From the IMG/VR virus record IMGVR_UViG_3300048576_000587: 24,203 nt of DNA; one strand, written 5' to 3'. The notes beneath the pieces were generated by a model that saw nothing but the letters and a program-made list of their open reading frames with translations, searched no databases and was not told the DNA's origin. A program made the translations under genes and the position numbers. This document shows positions 1-23,559 of this stretch, piece after piece. Origin of the DNA: an uncultured virus (IMG/VR IMGVR_UViG_3300048576_000587). Taxonomy: Duplodnaviria > Heunggongvirae > Uroviricota > Caudoviricetes. Within the stretch, counting starts at the first letter, position 1, and each line of letters begins with the position of its first letter.

Positions 1-123
1 GTTCTGCAGACCTGCTATCATACGATTATGCAAAAGGATGAGGCATTGGAAAACAGTAATTTAAACACGTATTACGGGTTTGGAATTAAGCAGACCTGTT
101 ATCATACGATAATGGAGGTATAA
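1..123 (+). CDS. 3' end of upstream gene, probably a P2 gpI-like baseplate/tail protein (partial)
   Basis: Frame 1 is open to TAA 121-123: VLQTCYHTIMQKDEALENSNLNTYYGFGIKQTCYHTIMEV. It resembles the C-terminus of the gpI homolog at 3700-4272 (VYYIGFGVYQRHFQKIR) and sits directly before a fibre gene. Confidence 0.55.
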   Translation, partial: VLQTCYHTIMQKDEALENSNLNTYYGFGIKQTCYHTIMEV

Positions 124-124
124 A

Positions 125-2101
125 ATGGCCAAGTTTACAAATTTGACTATGACCGAAAATGGTCTGACTTTGCAAATCAAAGCCCAGTCCGGTACTCAAT
201 TGAAGTTTACCAAGGTCGCCATTGGTGATGGGACTTTGGATGAAGGTGAAAGTTTAAATGGTTTAATTCAGTTGAAAAAAGAAAGAATGTCGACGGCTAT
301 CGGCAATTTATCCATCGAAAACGGTTCTACAGTTATTAAAGCCAATTTTTCCAATAAAGACTTGACTGAGAGTTTCTATTTAAGGGAATTGGGCATTTTC
401 GCCAATGATCCCGACGCGGGGGAAATTTTGTACGCCGTAACCTATGATGAAAAACAGGGAGATTATTTACCGGCTTATAACGGCAGTGAAGTTGTAGAGC
501 AGGTGTTCACTCTTTCACTGATAGTATGTAGCGCCACTGATGTGACGGCTACCTTTGCGGAGTCGATCTATGTTTTGAGAGCCGGCGAAACTATGACCGG
601 ACCGTTGGTTTTGAGTGGGGACCCTACTACAGATTTAGGGGCTGCAACGAAACATTATGTGGATAATTGTACAGTGGATAATATCCAAGGTTTCATTAAA
701 TCCCTGATCGTTGCCTCAGGAAAAACAATAACTACTGGGGATGTAGTGCGGATGATTAATGGGGGGATTGAAAAAGCTGTAAATCAACAAATGGGACCTC
801 CAGTAATATTTGAGAATAATAAAATCGGGGAAATAACAGCATGTGTTTTGGATAGTAAACGAGTACTTTTAGCCTATCGAAATGAAAATAATTCCGGTTA
901 TGGTACTGCGATAGTATTATCTATTTCCGGCACTACGATTACTACCGGTACAGCAGTAGTATTTAATAGCGGATCTACTGACTTTATAAGAACATGTGTT
1001 TTGGATAGTGGACGAGTACTGGTAGTATATGAAAATCTAAATAATTCATCTTATGGCACTGCAGTAATATTAACTATTTCTGGTACAATAATCACTGTTG
1101 GAACAGCAACAGTGATTATTAATACTACATACACTTATATTCATTCCATATGTATGTTAAATAGTGAGCGAGTATTGGTGGTATATTCAATTGGAAACAG
1201 TCCTTATTATGGCGCTGCAGTAATATTAACTGTTTCCAATACCACGCTGACTACCGGTTCGGTAACAGTATTTAATAATAAATTTACTAGTAGTATATCT
1301 GCATGTGTTTTAGATAGCAGCCGGGTGTTGGTAGCATATGAAGATGTAGATGATTCTCATTACAGCAAAGCAGTAATATTGACTGTTTCTGGAACTACAA
1401 TCACTGTCGGTACGACAATAGTATTTAATAATGCATACACAAGTGGAATATCCGCATGTACTTTGGATAATGGACGAGTGTTAGTGGCATATGAGGATGT
1501 AAATAATTCTTATTATGGCAAAGCAGTAATATTGACTGTTTCCGGAATTGCGATCACCGTCGGTACAGCAATAGTATTTAATAATGCAAAGACTTATAGT
1601 ATATCCACATGCGCTTTGGATAATGGAAGAGTATTAGTGGCGTATGGAAGCCAAGATAGTTTCGGCGCTATGGTAATATTAACTACATCCGGTGCTAACA
1701 TATTTTCCAATGTTCCGAAAATATTTGCGAATGCGCGTATTTATTTAATATCTGCTTACATTTTTAGTAATAATCGAGTACTGCTAACATGGGCGTTATA
1801 TGCTGGTAATAATATATTATGGGGTTACGATTACAAATGCGGTACTGCGGCAATTATAGATATGGCGCCTTCGATGAGTGGAATATGTGGAATTGCAAAT
1901 GAGAGTAAAACGAATGGAGAGTTGTGTAAAGTTTCAATCGGCCCAATCATAACCCGGTTATCAGGATTGATAACCGGAGCAACTTATTATTTGAATGAAA
2001 CCGGATCATTAATAACAACTTCATCATCACTCCAAATCGGGGTCGCACTAAGTGATACTGAATTAATTTGGCAACCTGCCAGAGTTAATCAAGATATTTA
2101 A
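125..2101 (+). CDS. Phage tail fibre: DUF3751-like N-terminal baseplate anchor plus C-terminal 7-repeat beta-propeller
   Basis: RBS GGAGG at 114-118. N-terminus MAKFTNLTMT..G..LQ.K..SG..LKFTKVAIGDG..YLRELGIFANDPDAGEILYA; MTGPLVLSGDPTTDLGAATKHYVD fibre motif; seven ~51-aa repeats. Confidence 0.85.
   Translation: MAKFTNLTMTENGLTLQIKAQSGTQLKFTKVAIGDGTLDEGESLNGLIQLKKERMSTAIGNLSIENGSTVIKANFSNKDLTESFYLRELGIFANDPDAGEILYAVTYDEKQGDYLPAYNGSEVVEQVFTLSLIVCSATDVTATFAESIYVLRAGETMTGPLVLSGDPTTDLGAATKHYVDNCTVDNIQGFIKSLIVASGKTITTGDVVRMINGGIEKAVNQQMGPPVIFENNKIGEITACVLDSKRVLLAYRNENNSGYGTAIVLSISGTTITTGTAVVFNSGSTDFIRTCVLDSGRVLVVYENLNNSSYGTAVILTISGTIITVGTATVIINTTYTYIHSICMLNSERVLVVYSIGNSPYYGAAVILTVSNTTLTTGSVTVFNNKFTSSISACVLDSSRVLVAYEDVDDSHYSKAVILTVSGTTITVGTTIVFNNAYTSGISACTLDNGRVLVAYEDVNNSYYGKAVILTVSGIAITVGTAIVFNNAKTYSISTCALDNGRVLVAYGSQDSFGAMVILTTSGANIFSNVPKIFANARIYLISAYIFSNNRVLLTWALYAGNNILWGYDYKCGTAAIIDMAPSMSGICGIANESKTNGELCKVSIGPIITRLSGLITGATYYLNETGSLITTSSSLQIGVALSDTELIWQPARVNQDI
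800..1860 (+). repeat. Seven ~153-bp (51-aa) coding tandem repeats, probable propeller blades
   Basis: Consensus CxLDxxRVLVAYxxxxNSxYGxAVILTVSGTTITVGTAxVFN; ATGTGTTTTGGATAGT recurs at 841 and 994 (153-bp period); AT-rich. Confidence 0.9.
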
Positions 2102-2152
2102 CCTAACTGAATATGGATAGTCAAGAATATTTAAATTTGGGAGGAATAAAAA

Positions 2153-2410
2153 ATGATTGTACTCATCGACAAAAATAATGTAATTATTGATATTGTGGAA
2201 TCCGCTCAAACGGTTGAAAACGGTCTTCAGGTCACAAAAAATAAACAGACTTATATTTACGCGAGTGTTTTGAGTAAAGACTTCTCCCAAATAGAAAAAG
2301 ATAACATACCGGATGGAGTTAATGCCCAGGCATACAAATTGGTTGAAGGGGAATATGTGGTCAATCCGGATTATGTGGCACCAAAATATTATAATACCAC
2401 AAGGTTCTGA
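2153..2410 (+). CDS. Small fibre-associated hypothetical protein (possible chaperone), possibly frameshifted at its 3' end
   Basis: RBS GGGAGGA; follows a fibre gene; the +1 frame continues to 2492 with coiled-coil-like sequence. Confidence 0.6.
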   Translation: MIVLIDKNNVIIDIVESAQTVENGLQVTKNKQTYIYASVLSKDFSQIEKDNIPDGVNAQAYKLVEGEYVVNPDYVAPKYYNTTRF

Positions 2411-2555
2411 TACCGAATCGATTAGGAGCACCCTGATAAGCCTAAAAGAGGAATTAGAGAACTACCAAAAGCAAAATAATGTTTTGAAGTAACTATCATC
2501 GTGGAGAGTATCGTAATTATGGGAATGTTATTGTAATCCAAGGCGGTGAATAAGC

Positions 2556-3707
2556 TTGTCCAACATTGACAAATTAAACAATCTAACGGATATCGATTTT
2601 GTGGATACGGATGTGAATACCTTGCTGGCCGAATTAATCGCCGATTACGAGACCAAGTATGCGGAATTGACCGGCGAATCCAAAACCCTGGCCGGTGGCG
2701 ATCCGATTCGCATTTTGCTTTATGCCAATGCGGCGCGGATTTATGCAATCTTACAAAAGATTAATCATGCGGCCAAACAGAATTTATTGAAATATGCCGC
2801 CGGGAACTATTTGGATCAACTGGGAGCGCGGGTGGGGGTGATCCGCCAGGAGGCGACTTCCGCCAAAGCCACCGTGGAATTTACCCTGTCCAAAGCCCAG
2901 TCCGGTGGGGTAACCATTCCGAAAGGGACCCGGGTGGCCGCGGGTAATGTCTATTTTGCCACGCTCAAAGAGGCTGGAATCGCCCCTGGTAGCCTGGCTG
3001 CCGATATTACCGTGGAATGCGCCGAAACCGGCGCCTTGGGGAATGACTTTACCAGCGGGCAAATCAATGTCCTGGTGGATCCGATCCAATATGTGGCAAG
3101 TGTTAGTAATATCGACACCAGCGGGGGCGGGACCGACGAAGAGGATGACGAATCCTTGAGGGAACGGATCTTCCTTAAACCGGAATCATTCAGTGTGGCC
3201 GGGCCATCCGGGGCCTATGAATACTTTGCCAAGGAATATAGCTCAGAAGTTGCGGATGTGGCCATTGATTCTTCCAGTGAGGGAGTAGTCAATATCTATA
3301 TTATCCTTGAAGGCGGCAAGATACCGGATGATAATGATCACATTCTTACAGAGCTGAATCAATATTTGAGCGACCAGACCCGGCGGCCCTTGACGGACAA
3401 GGTGAATGTCCTTGCGCCAAGCCCGGTGGAATATAACATTGATCTTACCTATTATATCAAGAGCAGTGACAGTTCGATGGAGAGTAATATTAAAACCGCC
3501 GTGGCCAATGCGATTCAAACCTACCGGCTTTGGCAAAAGTCTAAAATCGGCCGTGATATCGATCCCGGCTATCTCCAATATCTGATTTACGCTGCCGGGG
3601 CTAAGCGGGTAGTCATTAATTCCCCAAACTATCAGCAGCTTTCCATTACCCAAGTAGCCAAGGATGTAACGGTAAACGTTATTTACGGGGGGCTCGAGGA
3701 TGAGTGA
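2556..3707 (+). CDS. Baseplate J/gp47 family protein (contractile-tail wedge)
   Basis: LLKYAAGNYLDQLG, GVTIPKGTRV, ECAETGALGN, GGTDEEDDESLRERI, SVAGPSGAYEYFA and RRPLTDKV motifs; TTG start with AGGCGGTG RBS. Confidence 0.93.
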   Translation: MSNIDKLNNLTDIDFVDTDVNTLLAELIADYETKYAELTGESKTLAGGDPIRILLYANAARIYAILQKINHAAKQNLLKYAAGNYLDQLGARVGVIRQEATSAKATVEFTLSKAQSGGVTIPKGTRVAAGNVYFATLKEAGIAPGSLAADITVECAETGALGNDFTSGQINVLVDPIQYVASVSNIDTSGGGTDEEDDESLRERIFLKPESFSVAGPSGAYEYFAKEYSSEVADVAIDSSSEGVVNIYIILEGGKIPDDNDHILTELNQYLSDQTRRPLTDKVNVLAPSPVEYNIDLTYYIKSSDSSMESNIKTAVANAIQTYRLWQKSKIGRDIDPGYLQYLIYAAGAKRVVINSPNYQQLSITQVAKDVTVNVIYGGLEDE

Positions 3708-4272
3708 ACGGCGTGGCAAGACGATAAATGATGTGACTTTGCTGGAGTTATTGCCCCCTAATCTGGCGGAGATCCCGGAGTTCATCGCTGTGGGCGCAGC
3801 CATTGACAAGCAGTGGCAAAAGCTGGCGGCCAAGATTAACAAGGTACTGACCTTTGTGGACATTGATGAGGCCTGCCCGGAGGTGGTTGATATGCTGGCG
3901 GCTGAAATGAATGTGGATTTTTATGACTCCACTTTGGAGTTGGCCAAACGGCGGGTGCTGGTGAAAAACGGTTATGTCTACAAATACACCAAGGGGACGG
4001 CTTACGCGATTCAACAGGTGGTAACCGACGCTTATGACACGGCTCATGTGGAAGAGTGGTTCGATTATAATGGAGAGCCATATCATTTCCGGATTACGAC
4101 CGGGGCGTCCATGCCGGACGAAGCGATCATCAATCATATTTTCAGCGCGGTCAATGCAGTCAAAAATGTTCGTTCCAAACTAGATTATCTAGGCGCCTTA
4201 AAAACAGTCGATAATCCGGTTTATTATATCGGATTTGGAGTATATCAGCGGCATTTTCAAAAAATTCGTTAA
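3700..4272 (+). CDS. Phage tail protein I (P2 gpI-like)
   Basis: LLELLPPNL, DMLAAEMNVDFYD, KGTAYAI, EEWFDYNGEPYHF and KNVRSKL motifs; overlaps the baseplate J stop. Confidence 0.88.
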   Translation: MSERRGKTINDVTLLELLPPNLAEIPEFIAVGAAIDKQWQKLAAKINKVLTFVDIDEACPEVVDMLAAEMNVDFYDSTLELAKRRVLVKNGYVYKYTKGTAYAIQQVVTDAYDTAHVEEWFDYNGEPYHFRITTGASMPDEAIINHIFSAVNAVKNVRSKLDYLGALKTVDNPVYYIGFGVYQRHFQKIR

Positions 4273-4292
4273 TACGAAAATAGAAAATCTAA

Positions 4293-4399
4293 TTCTCGCG
4301 CAGAGACGCGGAGAATGATAAAATATAATTTCTGTTAAATGCTAAGTCATTTTGTTCTAGATAATCATTCCTCTGCGTCTCAGCGCCTCCGCGGGAGAA
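4293..4399. repeat. Intergenic inverted-repeat element built from 8-bp subunits (REP/MITE-like)
   Basis: Left arm TTCTC-GCGCAGAG-ACGCGGAG-AATGAT (4293-4319); right arm ATCATT-C-CTCTGCGT-CTCAGCGC-CTCCGCGG-GAGAA (4364-4399); AT-rich spacer. Confidence 0.75.
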
Positions 4400-4492
4400 C
4401 AATGATTCAATGACTTACGATATTTTCATTCCTGGTTGTGATACCAATCATGCCGTGTTAGTTAGAATGCAAAGTTCGGAGGAGAAAGAAAA

Positions 4493-6424
4493 ATGGCGAA
4501 TTTTGGGACTTTAGTAATAACAACTGCCGGAATGGACTTGCAAGGAAAAGTTGAAGCCGGTCGGACAACATTGACTTTTAACCGGGTGGCAATCGGTGAT
4601 GGGACTTTACCCGGCGGGACAAGTCTCTCGAGTTTAACAAACTTGATCAACCCGAAAATGTCGGTCGCCATTAACTCCATCACTGTAAATAAAGGCTTGG
4701 CGACCTTAAAGTTTACTTTTTCCAATAGTGGTCTGATTACCGGGTTCTATATCCGCGAGCTTGGCATATTCGCCAATGATCCCGACGCGGGTGAAATCCT
4801 TTACGCCGTGGTCAATGCCGGTGACAGTCCTGACTATCTGCCGGCGGAAGGGTCGAATATTGTGGAGGAGATCTTTGAGGTGGTAGCTGCCATTGGTAGT
4901 ACCTCCAACGTAACTGCAACGATAGATAAGTCCTTAACTTTCTTGCCTTTGGTGGGCGGCAATATGGCGGGAGCTATCAACGAGGCTGAGGTGGCCATGG
5001 CCGCGGAAGCAACGATGAACATAGGGACTGCGGCGGGGAATTTTATTTTGGTAACCGGTACAACAACGATAACCGCTTTTGATAATGTGCAGGCTGGGGC
5101 TAGGCGTACTTTAAAATTTACCAACTCCTTAACAATTACGTATAATTCAGCCAGCATGATTTTGCCGGACGCGACCAGTCTTGCGGTTAGCGCCGGTGAC
5201 GTTGCGGAATTTGTAAGTCTGGGTAATGGGAATTGGGTTTGTATTAATTATCAACCGGCAGTCGGGAATTTGCCAAGCAATGGCACTGCAGTGAATGCGG
5301 CGACAGCGACTAATGTTACAACCAATATCAATGGTCGTGCCATTACACATATTTTCGAATCTGATGGAGTAACGGCGAAAAATGCGACGAATGCACTTAT
5401 AACGAATCGTGCTAAATCTATTGGCGGCTATGCTGGTGTATTAAATAATATGTTAGGTACATGGCCGCAAATTTTGGCTCCAATGTTACGGCAACAATCT
5501 CTTACACTAAATTCGGGAGAAAATAATGGAGGTAGTATTACTTTTGATGGCACTTATTTATATGTAGTGAATAAAACCTTACCAACAATTATTACAAAAA
5601 TTAATTCAAGTACTATGACAAGAATAGGATCTCTTGAATTGGAATATGGAGAATGGACTGCAAATTCTATTACTTTTGATGGCGCTTATTTATATGTAGC
5701 AAATGTGACCAATCCAACAATAATTACCAAAATCAATCCAAATACTATGACAAGAATAGGATCTCTCACCCTAAATTCAGGAGAAAATAATGCATGTACT
5801 ATTACTTTTGATGGTACTTATCTATATGCAGTAAATTCAACCTATCCAACAACAATAATTACCAAAATTGATCCAAGTGGCATGACAAGAATAGGATCTC
5901 TTTCATTAAATTCGGGGGAATATAATGCATGGGGTGTTACTTTTGATGGTACTTATTTATATGTAGTAAATCAGACCGAACCAACAATAATTACTAAAAT
6001 TAATCCAAGAACTATGACAAGAATAGGATCTCTTACCTTAAATTCAGGAGAAAATAATGCACATGCTATTACTTTTGATGGCATTTATTTATACGTAGTA
6101 AATTTAGGCAATCCAACAATAATTACTAAAGTTAATCCAAGGACTATGACAAGAATAGGATCTCTTACCTTAAATTCGGGAGAAAATAATGGATGCAGTG
6201 TTACTTTTGATGGCACTTATTTATATGTAGCAAATGTGACCAATCCAACAATAATTACCAAAATCAATCCAAATACTATGACAAGAATAGGATCTCTTTC
6301 ATTAAATTCGGAAGAAAATAATGCAAATTCAATTATTTTTGATGGTACTTATCTATATGTAGTAAATTCAACCAATCCGACTATAGTTAAACAAATTGAT
6401 ACTATGGGAAATTATTGGAGTTAA
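4493..6424 (+). CDS. Phage tail fibre: DUF3751-like anchor plus a different C-terminal 7-repeat beta-propeller
   Basis: RBS GGAGGAG; N-terminus paralogous to 125-2101 (RVAIGDG, IRELGIFANDPDAGEILYAV, DYLPA); seven 44-aa repeats. Confidence 0.85.
   Translation: MANFGTLVITTAGMDLQGKVEAGRTTLTFNRVAIGDGTLPGGTSLSSLTNLINPKMSVAINSITVNKGLATLKFTFSNSGLITGFYIRELGIFANDPDAGEILYAVVNAGDSPDYLPAEGSNIVEEIFEVVAAIGSTSNVTATIDKSLTFLPLVGGNMAGAINEAEVAMAAEATMNIGTAAGNFILVTGTTTITAFDNVQAGARRTLKFTNSLTITYNSASMILPDATSLAVSAGDVAEFVSLGNGNWVCINYQPAVGNLPSNGTAVNAATATNVTTNINGRAITHIFESDGVTAKNATNALITNRAKSIGGYAGVLNNMLGTWPQILAPMLRQQSLTLNSGENNGGSITFDGTYLYVVNKTLPTIITKINSSTMTRIGSLELEYGEWTANSITFDGAYLYVANVTNPTIITKINPNTMTRIGSLTLNSGENNACTITFDGTYLYAVNSTYPTTIITKIDPSGMTRIGSLSLNSGEYNAWGVTFDGTYLYVVNQTEPTIITKINPRTMTRIGSLTLNSGENNAHAITFDGIYLYVVNLGNPTIITKVNPRTMTRIGSLTLNSGENNGCSVTFDGTYLYVANVTNPTIITKINPNTMTRIGSLSLNSEENNANSIIFDGTYLYVVNSTNPTIVKQIDTMGNYWS
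5498..6400 (+). repeat. Seven ~132-bp (44-aa) near-identical coding tandem repeats
   Basis: Consensus SLTLNSGENNAxxITFDGTYLYVVNxTNPTIITKINPxTMTRIG; CTTTTGATGG at 5541 and 5673; 5685-5766 identical to 6216-6297. Confidence 0.95.
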
Positions 6425-6617
6425 TATTGTATTTTTAATGGAACATGGTGACTTTGATTAACTTATAAAAAGTTATGAATTACACTCCGGAGTGGCTTAT
6501 TGATTCTCATCCGGCCAATTAGCTAAAACAATTATCAATAAAATAGATGAGATAAACCTGGATATTTAGTTTATTGTTAGATAAATTCTCTGATGTCAAA
6601 GAAGGAGGAGAATTCCC

Positions 6618-7583
6618 ATGCCTGACCTTACACCCACCATTAACCTCAAAAAACCGCTGGGCAATGAAACGGTCAACCGGGCCGCATATGCGGAAAACCT
6701 GGACTTGATTGATGCAGCGGCTTTGGCGGCGAAGAATGATTTGCAAACTCATCTGGATAGTCCTGATCCCCACCCCCAGGCGGGTTATTATGACTTTCCC
6801 ATCGGCGCCATCATTTTCGCCGCATATGATACACCTCCGGGAGGATGGCTTGAATGTAATGGGGCGGCGATCTCCCGAATGGCGTTTCCGGAGTTGTTCG
6901 CCAGGATTGGAACCCGTTTTGGTATAGGCGACGGTACGGTTACTTTTAATTTACCGGATCTGCGCGGGGAGTTTATCCGGGGCTGGGATCATGATAGAGG
7001 AATTGACTCTGGGCGGCAATTGGGGAGCTGGCAGAAAGATGAGTTTAAGAGCCATTATCATGAAACCGATGTAGAAGGACCTAAGAATGACGGTCCAACA
7101 AGATATGCATGTATCGGGAGTTATTTAAGTCACCCTACGACTAACACTTTCCCTAGCGGCGGTTCCGAAACTCGCCCCCGGAACATCGCCCTGATGCCCA
7201 TCATCAAGGCCAAGAATGTCCAGGGGTCCGATCCAGCGGTGCATCAAGCCAACGCCGACACTCTGGACGGGTTGCACGCCGCCGACTTTATGCCGTCCAA
7301 TTCTTTTAACAATCATAGTTTGGGTTCCACCGGTTATCAGGCGTTACCCGGCGGGCTGTTACTCCAGTGGGGCAAGAACACGGTGAACGCCAACGCCACT
7401 GCCGTTTTTAATTTCCCAATCACCTTTCCCGGCGAAGTATTTATGATTTTGGCCGGACTTGATCAGGAAAAAACCACAGTGGACAATACCGTTTCCGCCC
7501 ATTCCGTCTCCAAATCACAGTATTCCCTCTCCAATACTTGCGGTACGGCGAAAACTATCTCCTGGATTGCTTTAGGTAGGTGA
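6618..7583 (+). CDS. Tail fibre with phage tail-collar domain and gp53-like C-terminal domain
   Basis: RBS AGGAGGAG; MPDLTPTINLKKPLGNE start; collar motif PIGAI..PPGGWLECNG..FNLPDLRGEFIRGWD; ETRPRNIA; GYQALPGGLLLQWG. Confidence 0.88.
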   Translation: MPDLTPTINLKKPLGNETVNRAAYAENLDLIDAAALAAKNDLQTHLDSPDPHPQAGYYDFPIGAIIFAAYDTPPGGWLECNGAAISRMAFPELFARIGTRFGIGDGTVTFNLPDLRGEFIRGWDHDRGIDSGRQLGSWQKDEFKSHYHETDVEGPKNDGPTRYACIGSYLSHPTTNTFPSGGSETRPRNIALMPIIKAKNVQGSDPAVHQANADTLDGLHAADFMPSNSFNNHSLGSTGYQALPGGLLLQWGKNTVNANATAVFNFPITFPGEVFMILAGLDQEKTTVDNTVSAHSVSKSQYSLSNTCGTAKTISWIALGR

Positions 7584-7589
7584 TAAATT

Positions 7590-7979
7590 ATGAAATATGC
7601 TCAATATGATGAAAAGGGCCGGATTACCGGGTTTTATACCCAGGGGTTAAACGGCGGGCTTCCCGAAAACGCCATTGAGATCAGCGATGAAGAATGGCTT
7701 GAATGTTTAAACGACCAGACCCGGTGGCGGGTCAATCCGGTAACCAAAGGACTGGAAGCGGATGATTATTCGCCATTAGCGGCCGAAAAACAGTTGAACA
7801 CCGTAATCCGCCCTCAAAGGGACAAGTTGCTTACCGCCAGCGATTGGACCCAACTCCTCGACAACGGCTTATCCCGGGCCAAGCGGAAGGAATGGGCCAT
7901 CTATCGGCGGAACCTCCGGAATTTTCCGGAAGTTTGCGACCCATTTGACCCGGTCTGGCCGGAACCGCCGGGGAGATGA
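7590..7979 (+). CDS. Tail fibre assembly chaperone
   Basis: LPENAIEISDEEW N-terminal part and RxQRDKLLxxSDWTQLxD..WAIYRRNLR..VWPEPP C-terminal part; follows a fibre gene. Confidence 0.85.
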   Translation: MKYAQYDEKGRITGFYTQGLNGGLPENAIEISDEEWLECLNDQTRWRVNPVTKGLEADDYSPLAAEKQLNTVIRPQRDKLLTASDWTQLLDNGLSRAKRKEWAIYRRNLRNFPEVCDPFDPVWPEPPGR

Positions 7980-15811: not shown

Positions 15812-15862
15812 TCAAATCATCGGACATCGATTATCTCGAAATCTATTGCATTAAATTGATTG

Positions 15863-15895: not shown

Positions 15896-15924
15896 TATTA
15901 AAAAATAATATGGAGGAATAAAAA

Positions 15925-16470
15925 ATGAGTAATTTGAACGCATCACCGCGAGTCATTCGGAGAAATAGCATCAAGGTCGTTCTCCGGGACCAAACATTTG
16001 AAATCCGCGGTCTGAGTATCGCCAGTTTGGAAAAACTTAAACAGAGTATTAGCAGCTTACTGGTGAAAGTTTTTCAAAAAATCGGCGAATTGCAACAGCA
16101 AGATTGGAATTCCCAGATAATTCCCAAGAAAGGTTTTCTCAATAAGTTATTAGGGCGTAAATCACAAATTACCATCCCAACCCAGACCATGAGTTTTATC
16201 GATGATTTGCTTAACTCGGTTTTAAAAGAACCTTTGGAGTTGTTAGAGTCGGCCAGCGGACTGCCTCATGAATTCTTCGATCCCAGTCAAAAAGAGACTT
16301 GTTTAGCCATCGAAGAAATTAAACAATTAGCCGAGATCGTGTTCGAGGTTAATGGCTTGGGTTTCGCTTGGACGGCACTGAAGCAACTGGGGAGACAAAT
16401 GGTGGAATCAATACAGAAGAAGCCATCAGTGCCGTCTGTCAATGGTACGGATACTCCCTCAGTGAACTAG
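15925..16470 (+). CDS. Tail assembly chaperone (lambda gpG analogue)
   Basis: Lies between tube and tape measure genes; RBS GGAGG; overlapped by a -1 frame ORF. Confidence 0.7.
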   Translation: MSNLNASPRVIRRNSIKVVLRDQTFEIRGLSIASLEKLKQSISSLLVKVFQKIGELQQQDWNSQIIPKKGFLNKLLGRKSQITIPTQTMSFIDDLLNSVLKEPLELLESASGLPHEFFDPSQKETCLAIEEIKQLAEIVFEVNGLGFAWTALKQLGRQMVESIQKKPSVPSVNGTDTPSVN

Positions 16471-16736
16471 AAAATGAATTATCATATGAGCAAGTGTCCT
16501 GGTTATATTCCGATGCGCTGAAACGGGAAAACATTAAGACCGCTCTAGAGGCTGAACTAAACTACCAGGCTTTAGCATTGTCACTAACTGCGGTACTTAA
16601 TAAAGCTTTAGGCGGCCAAGGCGACATTCCTGAGAAACTTGGCGTTATGGATGCGTTGGAGAACAAGAATCCGGAGCGGAAAAAGACTTTAACCCATTAC
16701 CGGGAAGATGCGCCGGATATTTTAAGTATATTATGA
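16359..16736 (+). CDS. Chaperone C-terminal extension (gpT analogue), probably made by -1 frameshift
   Basis: The -1 frame opens after TAA 16350-16352; in-frame G GGT TTC heptamer at 16359-16365; no SD before TTG 16368; WYGYSLSELENELSYEQV is T-like. Confidence 0.65.
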   Translation, partial: GFRLDGTEATGETNGGINTEEAISAVCQWYGYSLSELENELSYEQVSWLYSDALKRENIKTALEAELNYQALALSLTAVLNKALGGQGDIPEKLGVMDALENKNPERKKTLTHYREDAPDILSIL

Positions 16737-16761
16737 CTTTTAGAGCAAGGTGGTGTTTATC

Positions 16762-18942
16762 ATGGGTAGTTCGAATAATTCAAATATAGCAATGAATATC
16801 AAGGAAACTACTTCAGGCGGTTTTGATGATATTAACAAATCGGTTGTTATGTTAACAAAAAACTTACAAGAAATGGCCAATAAAGGTCAAGAAGCTGCAA
16901 AGAAACTAAAGTTTACGGAGCAGGCAAAACAAATTAATGAGTTTGTCGGTATAATTACTGATTTTGCAAAAAATGTGGATTTGGCAAATAGTATATTGGG
17001 TAAACTGGGAAACGAAGGGAAAAAGACTTCTACCTTATTTGAAAAGTTCGGCTTGGCGCTAAGTGATTCTATAATTAAAGCCATCCAACCCTTTTTAAAA
17101 TCTTTGAACGAAGGAATGTTGCCGGTACTCGCTATTATCGCCAATAGTTTTCAAAAGGTAGGTGTAAACATTGCGCCATTGATAGCAATACTTGCCCAAC
17201 TCCTACAAGTTGGTTTGCAAGCAATAGTCCCCGTATTGCAAGAGTTGGGAAATATAATTGTGTTTGTTTCGGAAAAGGTCGGCCAGTTTTTGGCCCCATT
17301 ATCAAACCTGGCTAATATCACCAGTGTGTTAGTCCCTATCATAACCGGGCTTATGATAGCTTTAGGTGCTATTAAAGTAGCGACACTCATTAATATGATA
17401 CCCCAGTTAGTGGCTGGATTTGCGACATGGGCCGTTCATGCTGGCACCGCCGCCGTAGCGACTTTGTCCGCAACAGGGCCAATTATTGGCATAGCATTAG
17501 CAGTTGTCGCTGGGATTGCCACAATTATTGCCCTTGTTCAAAGCTGGAAAGAACTCTGGAATGCCGCGCAAGTAATCTGGAAAGCCATCAGTGATGTAAT
17601 CGTTGCTTATGTTAGTGGCTGGAAAATGTTATTTGTTGGTCTTGGTAAAGTTATCTGGGGTGCGCTGACGCTTGATAAAAAGATGATTGATGCGGGGTTA
17701 AATGATGTAAAAGGCGCGGTGACCGGATTTATGGGTACTCTCGGTCAATCTGCCAACGAATCGGTAAACGCGTTGGGTAAAGTCGGTTCTGCTATATGGG
17801 GCAACATGGTAAATAACGCGAAAAATGCTGCCAGTTTTCTCCAAGGATCACTGACCGATACCAAACAAATCAACCAGCAAATAACCGAGGAAGAGAAGAA
17901 GCTAAACGAACAACGGGAAGCATTTGAAAAAGATTGGAGTAAAAAATTACGTGGTGAAACCGCCAGCCGGCTTGAACTTCTTGAGGATGAGAAAAAAGAA
18001 GCTCTTGCCAAAGCAGAGGAATTACACGCCAATAAAAGTGATATTGAAGCATATTATGATAAAAAAAGTAAAGATCTTGCTAAGGAAACTGCGGATGCTA
18101 AAGCACAAATCGAACATGAATTTATTTTAAAGTCAGAAGGAGAACTTCAACGGCGTATAGATGAACTTGATGATGAAATGAACGCTAAACTGGATGCAGC
18201 CAGAAAAGTAAACGCCGATGAAGCAAAGATTATAAAATATTATGATGATCAAAAAACCAAGGTAATCCAGGAAGGTGAAAAGAAGAGACGGGATGAGATC
18301 ATCAAGACGATTCAACAAGGATTATCAACCACAAAAGATATAGTAGGCAAGCTTTCAGGTTTATTCAATCAATATTACGATAACCGTTCCAAAGAAATTG
18401 ACGCCAACTATGCGGCGGAGAAAAAACGGATTATGGAATCCCAGATGAACGAGGAAGAAAAGAAAAAGGCTTTGGATGCCTTAGATGCGGATACCGATAA
18501 AAAGAAAAAACAACTGGCCAGAGAACAAGCCCAAACAAATAAGACTGTTGCTATATTTAACGCGGTTATTGATACGGCTCAAGCAATTGTATCGTCGCTG
18601 GCGGGGGGAATACCTCCCATGAATTTCATTATGGCAGCTTTAGCAGGGGCCATGGGCGCCGCCCAAATCGCGTTAATTTCAGCTCAACCTCTCCCGGCCT
18701 TGGCATCAGGGGGTATTATAACATCCAGTGGTATGGCGCTCGTTGGAGAACAGGGCCCGGAGCTGGTTACTCTGCCGCAGGCGGCTTCCGTTATTCCGTT
18801 AAACCGTCCACAGTTAAACGCGGCCGGTTTTGGCGGTTATAGCACCGCCAATATTACCCTTGAGATCGACGGACGGGCTTTGGTCAAGCAATTGGGGACA
18901 CCGCTTAGAGATGTGCTGCGAATCAAGACCGGTCTCAAATAG
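16762..18942 (+). CDS. Tail tape measure protein (~726 aa)
   Basis: Long helical protein with amphipathic/hydrophobic middle, W-spaced repeats, charged coiled coil and C-terminal PALASGGI..ALVGEQGPELV..IDGRAL; ATG 16762 with AAGGTGGTG RBS. Confidence 0.9.
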   Translation: MGSSNNSNIAMNIKETTSGGFDDINKSVVMLTKNLQEMANKGQEAAKKLKFTEQAKQINEFVGIITDFAKNVDLANSILGKLGNEGKKTSTLFEKFGLALSDSIIKAIQPFLKSLNEGMLPVLAIIANSFQKVGVNIAPLIAILAQLLQVGLQAIVPVLQELGNIIVFVSEKVGQFLAPLSNLANITSVLVPIITGLMIALGAIKVATLINMIPQLVAGFATWAVHAGTAAVATLSATGPIIGIALAVVAGIATIIALVQSWKELWNAAQVIWKAISDVIVAYVSGWKMLFVGLGKVIWGALTLDKKMIDAGLNDVKGAVTGFMGTLGQSANESVNALGKVGSAIWGNMVNNAKNAASFLQGSLTDTKQINQQITEEEKKLNEQREAFEKDWSKKLRGETASRLELLEDEKKEALAKAEELHANKSDIEAYYDKKSKDLAKETADAKAQIEHEFILKSEGELQRRIDELDDEMNAKLDAARKVNADEAKIIKYYDDQKTKVIQEGEKKRRDEIIKTIQQGLSTTKDIVGKLSGLFNQYYDNRSKEIDANYAAEKKRIMESQMNEEEKKKALDALDADTDKKKKQLAREQAQTNKTVAIFNAVIDTAQAIVSSLAGGIPPMNFIMAALAGAMGAAQIALISAQPLPALASGGIITSSGMALVGEQGPELVTLPQAASVIPLNRPQLNAAGFGGYSTANITLEIDGRALVKQLGTPLRDVLRIKTGLK

Positions 18943-18954
18943 GAGGTGAAAGAT

Positions 18955-20658
18955 ATGGAAGTTCGAATGAATGGGGTTCCCGTGGCATATGTCAGTGAGA
19001 GCATCTCCATCGAAGATACGATCGGTGAACGATCCACGGCTTCATTTACGGTTTGGGATGAAACCGGGACGGCACATTATAGCAAGGGAACGCCCTACCA
19101 AATATTCAATGATGACAATGAACTGCTGATATCGGGCGTGGTTGAGGATTCCAAGGCAAAGAAGTGCAGTCCGGTGGAACCCGGAATTCTTCATGATATC
19201 ACCGGAATCGACAATCATTATTTCGCCGATAAACGGATTGCCGCTAAGTCTTACAAAGCCCAAACCGCCGGTTATATCATTCGTGATCTAATCCAAAGTT
19301 ATCTGGCCGATGAAGGAATCACAGCTTCAACGCAGATCCAGGATGGGCCGGTTATCAACGAGGTTATCTTCAATTACATTCCAGTGAGCGACTGTATCGA
19401 CTCATTGGCTGAGAAAACCAGATTTTGGTGGAACATCGATGCCGCGAAACAAGTGACTTTCGTTTCCAAGTGTACCAATAACGCCCCTTGGGAGTTATCC
19501 GCCGGAGATATCATCGGAGAACCGGTGATCACCCGTGGCAATCCTCAATACCGGAATAAACAATATGTTCTCGGCGGCAAAGCCACCACGGATACCTTAA
19601 CGGAAACAAAATACGGGGATGGAAATACCAAAACATATACCGTGGGCTTTCCGATTGCTGAAAAACCGGTAATCAGAGTTTCAGGCGTTGAGAAAACGGT
19701 TGGAATCAAAGGAACTGATGAAAACAAAGACTGGTACTGGGCCAAAAGCGATCCGATCATTACCAGTGATACGGAGTTGGCCAATGGCGCCCTGCTTCAA
19801 ATTACCTATAAAGGCGAGTATCCGGTTATCGGAGTATACAAGTCCGACGATCAAAAAACAATATTGCGGGGGATTGAGGGTAGCGGTTCGGGGATAGTGG
19901 AGAATGTTGTCAAGCAAGAAACCAATGATAAAGATGCTGCTTTGCAATATGCCATCAGTTTGATTGATCAATACGCGACCGATGGCGAGAAAATTCAGTT
20001 TAAAACTGACCGGAAGGGGCTTAAACCAGGCCAGTTCTTAACGGTGAATCTTCCGGAATACGGGATGTGTGAACCTCCGTATAACCAATTGTTGATCGAA
20101 TCCGTTCATATCCAGGATGATATTTACCAATTGATTTATGAGGTAACGGCCTCCCGGGGGCCCATTGACGGAAGTTGGGCCAAGTTCTTCTATGATTTGA
20201 TGAAACCCACGCCATCAACTATCAGGGAGAATCTAGGCGAGAATGAGACACTATTAATCGTGTTGCCATACTCCAAGAACTGGCTGCCAACCGAAAGCCC
20301 CAATATATTCAAGGAGTTATATCCGGCGGCGAATCTATACCCAAGTCCAACCCTATATCCGCAGTTTAGTGCGGAAAATCGAATCAATTACGTCGCTTTA
20401 ATTGATGAAAATGAAAATGAAATATTCCGGAATAAGTGGATCAGTCAAACGGACACCGGCACCGGCACCATCGAGACTACTTTTTATATTCAACCGGCGG
20501 AGGGCGTGGGCAGTATTAAAAAAATCTACTGGTACGGCGGAGCAACCGCCTCGTTATATCCGGGCAGCGGCGTTAGAATGGCCTGGGTTAACTATGATCA
20601 TATCAAAACCAATGTTGAATCAATTCAAATCCAGAGAACTGATACGAAGGGATGGTAA
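18955..20658 (+). CDS. Tail tip/baseplate hub-like minor tail protein
   Basis: Directly after the tape measure gene; AGGAGGTG RBS; AGYIIRDLI, SDCIDSLAE..WNID and GLKPGQFLTV fit hub/Tal-like architecture. Confidence 0.65.
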   Translation: MEVRMNGVPVAYVSESISIEDTIGERSTASFTVWDETGTAHYSKGTPYQIFNDDNELLISGVVEDSKAKKCSPVEPGILHDITGIDNHYFADKRIAAKSYKAQTAGYIIRDLIQSYLADEGITASTQIQDGPVINEVIFNYIPVSDCIDSLAEKTRFWWNIDAAKQVTFVSKCTNNAPWELSAGDIIGEPVITRGNPQYRNKQYVLGGKATTDTLTETKYGDGNTKTYTVGFPIAEKPVIRVSGVEKTVGIKGTDENKDWYWAKSDPIITSDTELANGALLQITYKGEYPVIGVYKSDDQKTILRGIEGSGSGIVENVVKQETNDKDAALQYAISLIDQYATDGEKIQFKTDRKGLKPGQFLTVNLPEYGMCEPPYNQLLIESVHIQDDIYQLIYEVTASRGPIDGSWAKFFYDLMKPTPSTIRENLGENETLLIVLPYSKNWLPTESPNIFKELYPAANLYPSPTLYPQFSAENRINYVALIDENENEIFRNKWISQTDTGTGTIETTFYIQPAEGVGSIKKIYWYGGATASLYPGSGVRMAWVNYDHIKTNVESIQIQRTDTKGW

Positions 20659-20662
20659 AACA

Positions 20663-21604
20663 ATGAATACAGTTGAATTTGTTGACGGGGGCGCGCCGGG
20701 GATCAGTGCCGCTTTATTGAATGAACCATTTCAGATTAAGACACCCTCAAACGATAACGGAAATATCGTTGTAACCATTGGAACTGGACGGGCCAATTTC
20801 GGGAGTTTGCCGTTGGTTGAAAAGCTGACGGATAGCCAATTGATCATTACGTCACCGACGATTAATACCACGTATTACATTTTTCTTAAAAGTGACGGCA
20901 CTTTTGTATCCAATGTATCCAGTGATCCGCAGGATGGACAAGTCCTGTTGGGAGCCGTGGTTGTTGGGGAAACTCTAAACACGTTGTCAAAGCTTGACTT
21001 ACGGGGAATGCTGCCGGGATGCTATGGAACTGTACCCAGCCTGATAGTTAAGAACCGGACGGGAAATACTCCATTTGTTGATTTTTTTACTAGCGGCAAT
21101 AGTAATTATGACGCCAGGATTAGTTGCTCGGGCGGAAATACCACGGCTGGAAACGGGGATATTAACTTTGCAGGAAAATACATAAGGATCAATGATGAAG
21201 AACTCAACAAATGGGCCACACTTGGTGATACTGTTCTTTATACGGCGAATGCAGAACGCTCAGCGCCTTATGGAAGTAGTTTTTCAAAAAGATTTCGTGT
21301 AAAATATCCTGGAAACTACCGGATCCATGCTGAACTCAGAACTAATACCATTGGTTGGGGAGCTACAGTCACTGCAACCGCTCGCGGTGTAAGTAGTTCT
21401 GCATTCTCAGGTCTTACTACATATACCGGGGCAAATATTGATTTGATTGGAGTAGGAGCGAATGAGCTCATTAGTGTTACCGTTACGGTAGGTGGGGACT
21501 ATTATCATCAAGGAGCAACCGGGTATATGAAAAATGTGAGTTTACGATGTAATTATATTAACTATGATCCCAATAATTATACCTATGGTATGGTAGTAGA
21601 TTAA
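20663..21604 (+). CDS. Tail fibre / receptor-binding protein of the flexible-tail module
   Basis: Start moved to ATG 20663, 4 nt after the hub stop; FVDGGAPGISAALLN anchor-like motif; domain shared with the collar fibres; beta-rich C-terminus. Confidence 0.7.
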   Translation: MNTVEFVDGGAPGISAALLNEPFQIKTPSNDNGNIVVTIGTGRANFGSLPLVEKLTDSQLIITSPTINTTYYIFLKSDGTFVSNVSSDPQDGQVLLGAVVVGETLNTLSKLDLRGMLPGCYGTVPSLIVKNRTGNTPFVDFFTSGNSNYDARISCSGGNTTAGNGDINFAGKYIRINDEELNKWATLGDTVLYTANAERSAPYGSSFSKRFRVKYPGNYRIHAELRTNTIGWGATVTATARGVSSSAFSGLTTYTGANIDLIGVGANELISVTVTVGGDYYHQGATGYMKNVSLRCNYINYDPNNYTYGMVVD

Positions 21605-21623
21605 TTGAAAGAGGCGGAATAAT

Positions 21624-21905
21624 ATGTTAATCATGATAAATCCGGGAACAAATCAAATCGAATTCATCACTACCGTTAGGCCCCAAGGACGCCTGTTATC
21701 CGCCGCGGAGAAGGAGATAGCCATCATTGAAGAGCCTCCTCCGCATTTAAAAGCATTTCATATTATAGACGATGATTTAATTTCGAAGTTATGGGAAGCG
21801 ATGGATAAATCCGCTATCATCGAAAGTATTACCCCGATTTTCAATGATAACGGTGACTTGGTTGATTTAGCAATTACCGAATACGGTATCGGGGAAGAAC
21901 GCTAA
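21624..21905 (+). CDS. Small hypothetical protein (possible fibre chaperone)
   Basis: RBS GAGGCGG; follows the receptor-binding gene; 93 aa, acidic. Confidence 0.6.
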   Translation: MLIMINPGTNQIEFITTVRPQGRLLSAAEKEIAIIEEPPPHLKAFHIIDDDLISKLWEAMDKSAIIESITPIFNDNGDLVDLAITEYGIGEER

Positions 21906-21974
21906 AGGATGAAACAACCAATGTCTGATGAAGAACAGTAAACATGGAGAATTATCCGAAATACCTTTGTATTT

Positions 21975-22013
21975 TGAGCAGTGCCTAGCCATCCGGCCAA
22001 GCACTGCTCATTT
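21975..22013 (+). terminator. Stem-loop, probable terminator or attenuator
   Basis: TGAGCAGTGC (21975-21984) / GCACTGCTCA (22001-22010) followed by TTT; short U-tract. Confidence 0.5.
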
Positions 22014-22096
22014 CCCTCCGGTTGCATGGAGAAAATTCCATGTACGAATCGTTTCTATGGCGATATCAAAAATCCGTTGGATTGGAGTCGTTGCGT

Positions 22097-22801
22097 ATGA
22101 ATCAAAATAACATCCGGAATTTGGTTGTTTGCAGGGCCGGAGATACATCGCTCCATCCATTATGGCTGCATCCCCCGGAAGATAAGAACTTCGATGTTTG
22201 GATCAATTATTTCGGAACCCAACCGGGCAAGTATGTCAATGATTGCTTGATTTATAAGGAATCGGGGGGAACCAAATTTCCGGAGTTATATGATTTAATC
22301 AATGAAAACCTGGAGCAAATATTAACATACGATACAGTTTGGCTTCCGGATGATGATATTGTCACCGATGTGGCCGCCATTAACCAAATGTTTCAAATAT
22401 TCAACGAGCATGAGTTATGGCTGGCCCAACCTTCTTTACATCCAAATTCCTATTATAGTTATTCAATTACGTTAAAAAATGACGGGTGTTCCATGCGATG
22501 TACTAATTTTGTGGAGTCAATGGTACCGGTTTTTGCCACGAAAATATTGCTTAAGCTGCTTCACACATTCAAGGAAAATGTTAGCGGCTGGGGGTTGGAC
22601 TTTATCTGGCCCAAATTGTTAGGAAATCCGAGGGATAAAGTAGGTATCATTGATTCGGTAGCTGTTTTTCACTCCCGGCCGGCGGGGGCAGGAGAACTTT
22701 ATCAACAGACACGGAAACCGGCAAATGATGAAATGGTAAACCTCACGGCGAAATATAAAATTTCATTGCCTTACCCCATGGTTACATACCAATTTTTATA
22801 G
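22097..22801 (+). CDS. DUF707-like putative glycosyltransferase
   Basis: Start ATG 22097 (GGAG RBS); RAGDTSLH, YDTVWLPDDDI, LAQPSL, TNFVESMVPVF, GWGLDFIW and IIDxVxVxHxRP motifs. Confidence 0.78.
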   Translation: MNQNNIRNLVVCRAGDTSLHPLWLHPPEDKNFDVWINYFGTQPGKYVNDCLIYKESGGTKFPELYDLINENLEQILTYDTVWLPDDDIVTDVAAINQMFQIFNEHELWLAQPSLHPNSYYSYSITLKNDGCSMRCTNFVESMVPVFATKILLKLLHTFKENVSGWGLDFIWPKLLGNPRDKVGIIDSVAVFHSRPAGAGELYQQTRKPANDEMVNLTAKYKISLPYPMVTYQFL

Positions 22802-22873
22802 ATTGTCTTCCGATGGGCGGACCTTTATTAACTGTCCTGCCGGTTTAATTTTAAATAAGCGATGGTGAACTTC

Positions 22874-23113
22874 ATGACCGAACCTGTAAACATTAAATTA
22901 GCGCGACTGGAAGAAAAACTGGATGCCGTGGCCGAGAAAATCGATAACTTGGTAAAATGCAACAGCGATACCCAAGCGCGTTTGCGGGAGATGGAGAATA
23001 AAACGAATCTCTATGGCACCTATTTTAAAATCATTGCTTTCGTGGGAGGCGCCATCTGGACCATTATTCTGCTGATTATCGGCAAGATCTTCGGCAAATG
23101 GTTTGGGGAATGA
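22874..23113 (+). CDS. XhlA-like lysis protein / holin
   Basis: N-terminal coiled coil (LARLEEKLD) and one C-terminal TM helix; end-of-tail-operon position; alternative start 22862. Confidence 0.6.
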   Translation: MTEPVNIKLARLEEKLDAVAEKIDNLVKCNSDTQARLREMENKTNLYGTYFKIIAFVGGAIWTIILLIIGKIFGKWFGE

Positions 23114-23159
23114 GGTTTAGACCGGTTATAATCGTATCTTTCGAACGGAGGTAAGTAAA

Positions 23160-23489
23160 ATGGGTGAATTTAGTATCACACCAATGGACGGCGGTTTGGT
23201 GGTTCTAGTAATATTGGGGGTCCAGGCCTTGAAAAAACATGTTGTCCCGCGCTGCGTCCCCGTATTACCTTTTATTATCAGTTGGATTTTAATGGTCCCG
23301 GCGGTCATCGTGGCCCGGGGGGGCATTCCTTCCGTTTTGGTCTTAATCTCCCAGGCTTTTTTGGAAGGCCTGAAGGTAGCCGTATTAGCCATGGCCACGT
23401 ATAAGATTCAATATACCACCGTGCTCGGGAAGCGGTCCGACAATATTTTTACAGGACATTCCCGGAAGAGTAAAGTGAAAAACCAATAA
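23160..23489 (+). CDS. Putative holin
   Basis: 109 aa, 2-3 hydrophobic helices, VQALKK..P..P motif, basic C-terminus; RBS GGAGGT. Confidence 0.6.
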   Translation: MGEFSITPMDGGLVVLVILGVQALKKHVVPRCVPVLPFIISWILMVPAVIVARGGIPSVLVLISQAFLEGLKVAVLAMATYKIQYTTVLGKRSDNIFTGHSRKSKVKNQ

Positions 23490-23524
23490 AACACCAAAAA
23501 TCAATTCATAATTACACCATTCCG

Positions 23525-23559
23525 GCCGGATTCATCCACCCGATGAATTCGGCTTTTTT
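23525..23559 (+). terminator. Intrinsic terminator closing the tail-lysis operon
   Basis: GCCGGATTCATC-CACCC-GATGAATTCGGC-TTTTTT. Confidence 0.88.

Follow-up and report, generated by a model that had tools for sequence, protein, structure and literature searches.

Gene content of a 24-kb viral record points to a probable island of head-less contractile-type and flexible phage tails in Bacillota

What kind of element carries parts of two different phage tails, a large set of tail fibers and several glycosyltransferases, all without a recognizable phage head? The question is raised by a stretch of 24,203 nucleotides (nt) filed as an uncultured virus (IMG/VR record IMGVR_UViG_3300048576_000587), here called the window. 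A preliminary description of the window had proposed a composite tailocin locus of a spore-forming bacterium, with contractile and flexible tail modules side by side. From the analysis reported here, we consider it fairly probable that the window covers the right-hand portion of an island of head-less phage-tail machines (tailocins) in a bacterial chromosome. That an R-type (contractile) fiber end is joined, via an array of glycosyltransferases, to a complete F-type (flexible) module with its own activator and holins is likewise the arrangement that we think the window probably represents.

The gene order was fixed by open reading frames (ORFs) and by matches to Pfam, PHROGs and NCBIfam, which together give 26 credible genes. 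All lie on the + strand, as do the features described below unless another strand is given, and 25 of the 26 are intact, the sole broken one being the fiber gene B4; the preliminary statement that the genes are co-oriented and mostly intact therefore holds. So does its statement that the 24 kb contain no head, packaging, replication or integrase genes: no such family occurs in the 27 + strand ORFs in these three collections, and the 12 longest − strand ORFs match no Pfam family. The 24 kb thus lack the integrase, att sites and replication, lysogeny, capsid and packaging modules expected of an intact or recently integrated prophage. Neither a tRNA nor an Rfam family was found in the window, and megablast gave no match to 50,697 phage records. 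For comparison, relatives were fetched that are distant (47 to 65% identical by J protein), and four genomes (G001, G003, G008 and G018) were studied in detail.

The contractile-type character of the left part rests on two wedge proteins. Baseplate J, a gp6/gp47-like wedge protein (2556-3707; PF04865, E 1e-58; phrog_6, E 4e-85), is followed by a gpI-like baseplate protein of the Tail_P2_I family (3700-4272; PF09684, E 2e-19; phrog_14404, E 3e-36), and six fiber genes (A1, A2 and B1 to B4) accompany them, so that J and I wedge proteins with fibers, the mark of an R-type cluster, are present as the preliminary description had claimed. Its order of baseplate genes first and fibers afterwards stands for J, gpI and the fibers that follow them but not for fiber A1, which precedes J, nor for the start of the window, which opens inside another gpI-like gene (1-123; 40 codons, open from base 1). 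This 3′ end is of the core-adjacent I1 type: residues 14 to 38 match the C terminus of I1 in G003 (64% identity, E 7e-9) and G008 (64%, E 7e-10), and residues 10 to 37 match Ia of G001 (46%, E 1e-7). A J protein 53% identical to that of the window is recorded on a contig of 654,868 bp, a length also given for the contig of the window's own hub and tube. A 19-row tree places this J in a core-adjacent clade, J1 (support 100/100), and the window's J falls in a separate “extra cassette” clade (support 100/99); the same split was obtained in another J tree. The clade of the window's J is an old paralogous one that several lineages have retained. Because the window opens inside an I1-type gpI and a J1-clade J is recorded on a contig of this length, the contractile cluster very probably continues upstream of the window, and we infer that its core is located there. 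On this comparison, part 1 of the locus (1-11483) would be the fiber end of a PBSX/diffocin-like contractile cluster, comprising the core-adjacent gpI end with fiber A1 and then a paralogous J-I pair with five more fiber genes.

The separate sheath-less tail operon of the preliminary description, with its own receptor-binding protein, is found at 14822-21604, and no sheath family occurs among the ORFs of 14019-23489 in the three collections. It begins with a 147-amino-acid (aa) tail terminator or completion protein (SPP1 gp17-like; 14822-15265), which reaches a TM score of 0.75 to a Tail_completion_gp17 cluster in the ESM Atlas, occupies the same position as the gp17-family genes of phage relatives L052 and L058 and is 86% identical in G018. 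The 172-aa tail tube (major tail) protein (15293-15811) was assigned from an AlphaFold2 (AF2) model (pLDDT 74.7), for which the top Foldseek matches are the siphophage tubes of Douge (E 6e-6, TMq 0.63), HFTV1 and Bxb1. A C-terminal immunoglobulin-like domain is present in four of its seven homologues (the window's own record excluded), and a PDB sequence search with the tube returned only a spurious RecA-linker match. A hairpin (I5) with a T-run lies 3′ of the tube gene, at 15856-15902. Tail assembly chaperones in a G/GT-type arrangement follow (15925-16736), with one ORF at 15925-16470 and an overlapping −1 frame ORF at 16368-16736; both products are conserved in G008 (71% and 69%) and G018 (60% and 54%), and no slippery site was identified for the pair.

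The tape measure protein (730 aa; 16750-18942) matches phrog_18891 (E 1e-11) and five other tape-measure PHROGs, and its C-terminal part is 63 to 70% identical in G008 and G018. It is followed by a 570-aa baseplate hub with the gp27/Mu gp44/gpD fold and a C-terminal extension (18946-20658; AF2 pLDDT 85.6), whose Foldseek matches include the HFTV1 tail (E 7e-19), Mu gp44, the MuSo2 hub, monocin tip chain 9j1k_L and Listeria gp18. Homologues of the hub carry PF05954/PF24032, and a PDB sequence search with the hub gave no match. The receptor-binding protein (20663-21604; phrog_25788, E 7e-10) brings the fiber-type genes of the window to seven, in agreement with the earlier count of at least seven. 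Its residues 16 to 125 are 33% identical to residues 37 to 147 of fiber B3 (E 7e-13), in a numbering of the receptor-binding protein that is based on 20660 and runs one above the count from the ATG at 20663. The C-terminal part resembles the fiber of the contractile cluster of G001. The 93-aa protein downstream (21624-21905), by position a probable chaperone of the receptor-binding protein, has one homologue immediately behind the fiber of G001 (40%) and another behind the receptor-binding protein of G018 (48%). The domain common to the receptor-binding protein and the B fibers and the likeness of tip and chaperone to the contractile fiber of G001 therefore indicate that the two modules exchange binding parts. 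The tape measure also varies in size, from 730 aa in the window to 454 aa in G008 (L025:16825-18189) and 334 aa in G018 (L028:13704-14708, − strand), which predicts approximately twofold different flexible-tail lengths in close relatives. At the usual 1.5 Å per residue, the tape measure of the window would correspond to a tail of roughly 110 nm.

The hub family has 227 relatives in IMG/VR and was found at an E value of ≤1e-40 in 9 of 401 genomes of a phylum sample. The regions upstream of the hub were scanned in five of six chosen IMG/VR loci (56 of 73 ORFs). Capsid or portal families were found in three of the five (L052, L044 and L058; in L052 a terminase family as well), L094 had a minor-capsid match only, L064 had no head family and none of the five had a sheath family. 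In the window, the space that holds head genes in these phage relatives is taken by an activator, glycosyltransferases and contractile-type fibers; the flexible module is thus the tail-encoding half of a siphophage, severed directly ahead of the tail completion gene.

Upstream of this operon lies a gene for a RinA/sigma-70-region-4-like late transcription activator (14019-14576; phrog_36, E 2e-12; TIGR02937, E 1e-7, and TIGR01636 [RinA], E 2e-5, both under the cutoff), which is 75% identical in G018, with a ratio of nonsynonymous to synonymous substitution rates (dN/dS) of 0.105. The intervening noncoding leader (14577-14821) was recognized by alignment with G018, with which it shares 82% identity over its length and almost every base of the first ∼100 nt, at a dS of 0.6 to 1.4 in the flanking genes; it is likely to be a late promoter or operator. 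The near-identical stretch (14577-14680 versus L028:16800-16896, − strand) contains the palindrome CTCCGGCCGGAG. At the other end of the module, a holin-like protein with an N-terminal coiled coil and a C-terminal membrane helix (22862-23113; phrog_689 holin, E 3e-5) is 92% identical in G018 (dN/dS, 0.059). A second holin candidate (109 aa; 23160-23489; 77% identical in G018) shows several hydrophobic segments when read by eye and matches no family in the three collections, so that of the holins named in the preliminary description one has family support and the other is predicted from its hydrophobicity. Part 3 (14019-23554) would be a self-contained flexible tail, from the activator through a DUF707 enzyme (see below) to two holin-like proteins. 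It closes with a strong intrinsic terminator (23524-23554; a 13-pair stem and then a T-run), the exception in scans for sigma-70 promoters and terminators that were otherwise no richer than shuffled sequence. A single activator and a single holin set are visible in the window, and a k-mer comparison of 14 intergenic regions found no common regulatory motif. In the flank, a 97-aa host gene (23671-23964) also adjoins the locus in G018 (80% identical), and a partial ORF (24024-24203, − strand), possibly Spo0E-like, has no Pfam match.

Between the two tail parts, part 2 (11792-13969) would be an array of three active-looking glycosyltransferases of the GT-A type. Glycosyltransferase 1 (11792-12508; GT2/Glyco_transf_7C-like; phrog_1721, E 9e-24) starts at an ATG with GGGAGG upstream, and its paralogues, glycosyltransferases 2 (12532-13236; phrog_1721, E 5e-31) and 3 (13277-13969; phrog_1721, E 3e-31), follow. 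The motifs DxD, GWGxED and HLWH are invariant in all eight aligned copies and intact in all three genes of the window; glycosyltransferase 2 has a dN/dS of 0.157 against G018, and its PDB sequence search gave a weak chondroitin synthase match only. The preliminary description had counted four glycosyltransferases; three are confirmed as GT-A enzymes, while the fourth is a DUF707 protein (22022-22801; PF05212, E 1e-13) that is GT-A-like by structure only, the ESM Atlas giving DUF707 clusters and structural likeness to GT2-type clusters (TM ∼0.8). Glycosyltransferases adjoin fiber genes in three contexts, i.e., in the window, in G018 and in G001. They may add sugars to the particles or, alternatively, alter the wall glycan of the producer so as to protect it, and we consider the two about equally likely.

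Named homologues include Paenibacillus, Desulfosporosinus and Clostridium. Spo0A scores above its curated cutoff in all four relatives studied, which indirectly suggests that the host is a spore-former. Each of the four genomes has two separate Spo0A matches (292 to 320 bits), i.e., two Spo0A-like genes. A complete cluster from sheath to I, with fiber, chaperone and four glycosyltransferases, is present on contig 29 of G001, a metagenome-assembled genome of the Bacillota, and a second J-I-fiber set with holin and amidase lies 20 kb further on; no capsid gene was recognized within ∼10 kb upstream of the sheath gene, and the flexible module is absent. G003 has sheath, tube, tape measure, hub, gp25, three tandem J-I-fiber cassettes ∼4 kb apart, holin and amidase. 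G008, G004 and G006 have a cluster like that of G003, directly preceded at the sheath by a homologue of the flexible tail (46 to 80% identical to that of the window). In G008 (contig C40) the order is an extracellular contractile injection system (eCIS), SLT, three small ORFs, the flexible module, sheath, tube, tape measure, hub and gp25 and then three J-I-fiber cassettes, holin and Amidase_2; the spacing from hub to J is the same in G004 and G006. Head genes flank the paired modules in none of G008, G004 and G006, where no space is left for them. Nor was any head gene found next to the modules carried by G001, G003, G008 and G018, the upstream ORFs of G003 being matched to those of G008 by size and order, unscanned, and the check on head genes upstream of the contractile core that the preliminary description had called for thus came out negative in relatives.

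In G018 the order is at least four tandem glycosyltransferases, activator, terminator, tube (90% identical), chaperones, a shorter tape measure, hub, receptor-binding protein (43%), its chaperone, three cargo genes, both holin-like genes and the flanking 97-aa gene, so that the flexible-tail block and the glycosyltransferases are syntenic with the window. The cargo slot (L028:6089-10283, − strand) holds an unknown 342-aa protein, a radical SAM/SPASM enzyme and PMT_2 (GT-C) instead of DUF707. The tail modules of G008 are directly preceded by a complete ∼43-kb eCIS-type cluster (G008:C40:50.5-93 kb; L030, L031 and L025) with sheath, two gp19-like tubes, CIS_tube, a VgrG-like spike, gp25, giant proteins of 2,062 to 2,420 aa, Pvc16_N, an AAA ATPase and eCIS_core-domain proteins, which makes an island of ∼77 kb with three kinds of tail-like machine; the unscanned upstream ORFs of G003 are equal in size. 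A 66,207-bp JGI contig with tandem cassettes is a closer relative of the window, with three J paralogues (P0132, P0142 and P0159) 71%, 64% and 56% identical to the window's J, one in each major J clade of the tree.

Selection on the locus was estimated by the NG86 method. Between the window and G018, dN/dS is 0.06 to 0.26 in the nine pairs computed (a tenth, with saturated dS, was left out), compared with 0.13 for the flanking host gene, and between G003 and G008 it is 0.06 to 0.23 for sheath, tube, gp25 and all three J-I pairs. The genes are therefore under purifying selection, and selection is not relaxed in the sense that the preliminary description had named as contrary to its proposal. 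Of the four contrary outcomes that it listed, three (head genes upstream, lack of conservation in relatives and relaxed selection) were examined, two of them in relatives only; the locus proved to be conserved in relatives. The low dN/dS, the intact glycosyltransferase motifs and the near-invariant leader do not give the pattern of decaying remnants.

The fibers of the contractile-type part fall into two kinds. A1 (658 aa; 125-2101; phrog_7037, E 2e-39; PF12571) has a conserved N-terminal attachment domain, 62 to 65% identical to that of the fiber preceding J2 in G003 and G008, and then five to six 51-aa repeats (153-nt repeats D3/D8). A2 (643 aa; 4493-6424; phrog_7037, E 7e-48; PF21959, E 4e-12) has an N-terminal domain in common with A1 and then seven 44-aa repeats (DUF6923, propeller-like; 132-nt repeats D1/D7). 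The Collar domain and a common N terminus (repeat family D6) are shared by B1 (6618-7583; PF07484, E 7e-22; gp53-like C terminus, PF21882, E 1e-15), B2 (8280-9332; Gp10_C-like; PF07484, E 6e-25; phrog_9116, E 5e-38; start placed by paralogue alignment of D6), B3 (9357-10397; PF07484, E 2e-25; PF21939, E 2e-6; phrog_9116, E 2e-42) and B4 (10426-11483; repeat D9), which tblastn of B2 and B3 recovers as two pieces in different frames. A tail fiber assembly chaperone (7590-7979; PF16778, E 2e-13; phrog_188) follows B1, and an 85-aa ORF (2153-2410) may, from its position, be another fiber chaperone; it has a subthreshold DUF2977 match only, and tblastn recovered no counterpart from G001, G003, G008 or G018.

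Several noncoding or repeated features were noted among these genes. The 300-nt intergenic region before B2 (7980-8279) has six of the seven window copies of CACGAAT, all within 8024-8257, and an 18-nt perfect inverted repeat (I1; arms 8022-8039 and 8112-8129). The array motif is absent from all fetched relative loci, and the cluster could represent either an array of operators or a short repetitive element. Between gpI and A2, a gap of 220 nt (4273-4492) contains the GC-rich inverted segments CTCGCGCAGAGACGCGGAGAATG and CATTCCTCTGCGTCTCAGCGCCTCCGCGGGAGAAC. At the left end, a direct repeat of 25 nt (6-30 and 90-114, with a period of 84 nt or 28 codons) lies in the gpI-like frame, where it encodes QTCYHTIM twice, and may be an in-frame tandem duplication running beyond the start of the window; its 21-mer is absent from all fetched relative loci. 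The idea that this repeat is a recombination or operator site was dropped, as it sits inside the coding end of the gpI-like gene.

Several observations weigh against the interpretation of the window as part of a tailocin island. No contractile sheath, tube or hub lies within the window, so that of the proposed composite tailocin the two adjacent tail types, which are also side by side in G004, G006 and G008, are borne out but the contractile core would lie outside. An endolysin family is absent from the window in Pfam, PHROGs and NCBIfam, nor was a distinct gene for a distal tail protein found there. B4 has a one-base frameshift at a G7 run (∼11225-11231), after which the last 85 codons run in another frame to 11483; this break may reflect an error in sequencing, a pseudogene or a tract that switches the gene on and off by slippage. 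In G018 the hub is divided between ORFs of 157 and 569 aa, and new sequence separates the homologous parts (L028:11371-13691, − strand). G003 lacks the flexible module, and neither J nor sheath turned up in the assembly of G018; the modules therefore also occur apart. The order contractile-glycosyltransferases-flexible in the window versus flexible-contractile in G008 means that the junction is not ancestral as such, and G003, G004, G006 and G008 count as one lineage because their J branch lengths are only 0.01 to 0.06. Finally, purifying selection would also be expected in recently acquired phage genes. As the adjacency recurs in another lineage in the opposite order and the modules are also found alone, the link between the two co-oriented tail types is best regarded as recurrent rather than fixed.

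These points bear on four other explanations. PBSX-like elements of Bacillota carry head genes, and the contractile part could belong to a head-bearing myovirus prophage of this kind, defective or intact, with its head and packaging genes upstream, adjacent by chance to a flexible module that is head-less; of the contractile type the window itself has J, I and fibers only. We regard this as unlikely, since the sheath-to-J core in G001, G003 and G008 is preceded by lysis-type enzymes, eCIS or the flexible module (for G003 by the size-and-order match) and since the “extra” clade to which the window's J belongs sits inside head-less clusters in those genomes. That two unrelated prophage remnants are decaying side by side without present function would accommodate the frameshifted fiber gene, the missing endolysin, the split hub of G018 and the separation of the modules in some relatives. 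Such decay is nevertheless improbable given 25 of 26 intact genes, dN/dS values like that of the flanking host gene, the conserved leader and −1 frame chaperone ORF, intact catalytic motifs in all three glycosyltransferases and the same flank in G018.

The particles might also be made but serve as something other than bacteriocins, e.g., in adhesion, in signaling, in delivery to nonbacterial targets or as the tail of a capsid-forming satellite. Relatives carry eCIS in the same island, the fiber repertoire is unusually large and the fibers carry lectin-like and propeller repeats (Pfam), but the activator-tail-holin layout fits the regulatory, structural and lysis layout of monocin in the accessible part of its description (PMC11830787) and no effector or toxin gene was found in the window in the Pfam, PHROGs and NCBIfam scans; we would give this alternative a poor chance. 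An assembly artifact at the junction between the fibers and the glycosyltransferase-flexible-tail block is the least probable of all, to the point of being very hard to credit. None of the fetched relatives offers an independent copy of the junction (11484-11791), and the G018 contig ends within its glycosyltransferase array, but GC content is even across the junction (0.43 to 0.47), the fiber-chaperone-glycosyltransferase adjacency is also found in G001, and a contig of 654,868 bp is named in the records of a J1-type J as well as of the window's hub and tube.

If the window is part of a tailocin island, we infer that particles would be produced and would kill. A stress signal would turn on late activators, tails would be assembled in the cytoplasm without heads or DNA and a subpopulation would be lysed via the holins, releasing the particles. 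The fibers and the receptor-binding protein would then attach to wall glycans of related bacteria, where the contractile particle would puncture the envelope and the flexible particle would insert its tape measure and hub. A wider proposal, which we hold only tentatively as one possibility, is that two or three alternative, coevolving cassettes of wedge and fiber genes (J, I and their fibers) operate with a single contractile core, that the neighboring flexible tail uses the same pool of receptor-binding domains and that a glycosyltransferase array is dedicated to the system, which would form a modular, multiparticle arsenal island in spore-forming anaerobes. The eCIS of relatives is counted in this arsenal, and the glycosyltransferases would glycosylate fibers or retailor the producer's wall glycan for self-protection. 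In this proposal the J duplication would predate the split of at least four lineages, and given an ancient duplication and alternative cassettes, one cluster could build particles with different or mixed baseplate peripheries.

To our knowledge, Gram-positive tailocins are represented by few, single-type examples (diffocin and monocin). If true, a pair of contractile and flexible head-less tails in Bacillota would widen this picture, with duplicated wedge-plus-fiber cassettes, seven receptor-binding genes and their own sugar-adding enzymes. Such a locus would be a natural system for two questions, namely, by what means the range of targets is multiplied and how producers escape the particles that they make. 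With duplicated J-I-fiber cassettes it becomes testable whether one contractile core can take alternative baseplate peripheries, which is useful for engineering narrow-spectrum antibacterials against Gram-positive bacteria.

Among known systems, the flexible module is comparable to monocin, an F-type tailocin of Listeria monocytogenes with a regulatory region, structural genes and a lysis cassette, as far as the accessible part of its description goes (PMC11830787). Within that limit, the two have in common regulator(s), terminator, tube, two chaperones, tape measure, hub, receptor-binding protein and lysis genes, and neither has heads; the hub model of the window also matches monocin tip chain 9j1k_L, with no detectable sequence similarity between window proteins and the solved monocin chains. 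Unlike monocin, the window has no distal tail protein (FtbK equivalent) or endolysin that could be found, its hub directly follows the tape measure, as in phage contig L052, and glycosyltransferase and DUF707 genes are included. With siphophage contigs in IMG/VR (e.g., L052) the module shares a gp17-like terminator, tube, chaperone, tape measure and hub and the absence of a sheath family, but those of the L052 type have TerL, portal, protease, capsid and connector upstream, where the window has the activator, glycosyltransferases and contractile-type fibers.

Diffocins are the only widely recognized Gram-positive R-type tailocins according to the accessible part of a review (PMC10538166). The window's J and I are of the same family as those of the diffocin and PBSX-type contractile elements of Bacillota (PMC11329794, PMC10538166), and the core of the relatives has a diffocin/PBSX-like order of sheath, tube, tape measure, LysM/X, hub (YQBQ-like), gp25, J, I, fiber, holin and amidase. 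In contrast to these systems, two to three paralogous J-I-fiber cassettes stand in a row instead of one. Several alternative fiber genes per cluster, interpreted as a means to widen or vary the targets, are also a feature of kosakonicin (PMC6629978) and the Xenorhabdus tailocins (PMC13280938), but in the accessible parts of those reports fibers alone are multiplied, whereas here the wedge genes J and I are duplicated with them; no invertase gene was found in the window.

No description of a combined R and F locus in Bacillota, or of tandem J-I-fiber cassettes, was found in open-access papers and preprints. In the R/F pyocin organization, contractile and flexible head-less clusters are adjacent and co-oriented, with lysis genes that serve the locus. 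The present locus likewise has both tail types side by side and co-oriented. It differs in its host phylum, Bacillota, and in its tail lineages, which are unrelated: the core in relatives is PBSX/diffocin-like, and the phage relatives of the flexible tail have HK97-type heads. The activator in the window is RinA/sigma-like, and regulators of the PrtN/PrtR type were not seen. Beyond the pyocin plan, the window and its relatives have paralogous J-I-fiber cassettes and a glycosyltransferase array. Set beside the reference loci, i.e., the R2/F2 pyocin of Pseudomonas aeruginosa and the multitailocin clusters of rhizosphere Pseudomonas as given in the accessible part of their description (PMC4684702), the locus looks like the R plus F tailocin arrangement, described mainly in Pseudomonas, here in Bacillota.

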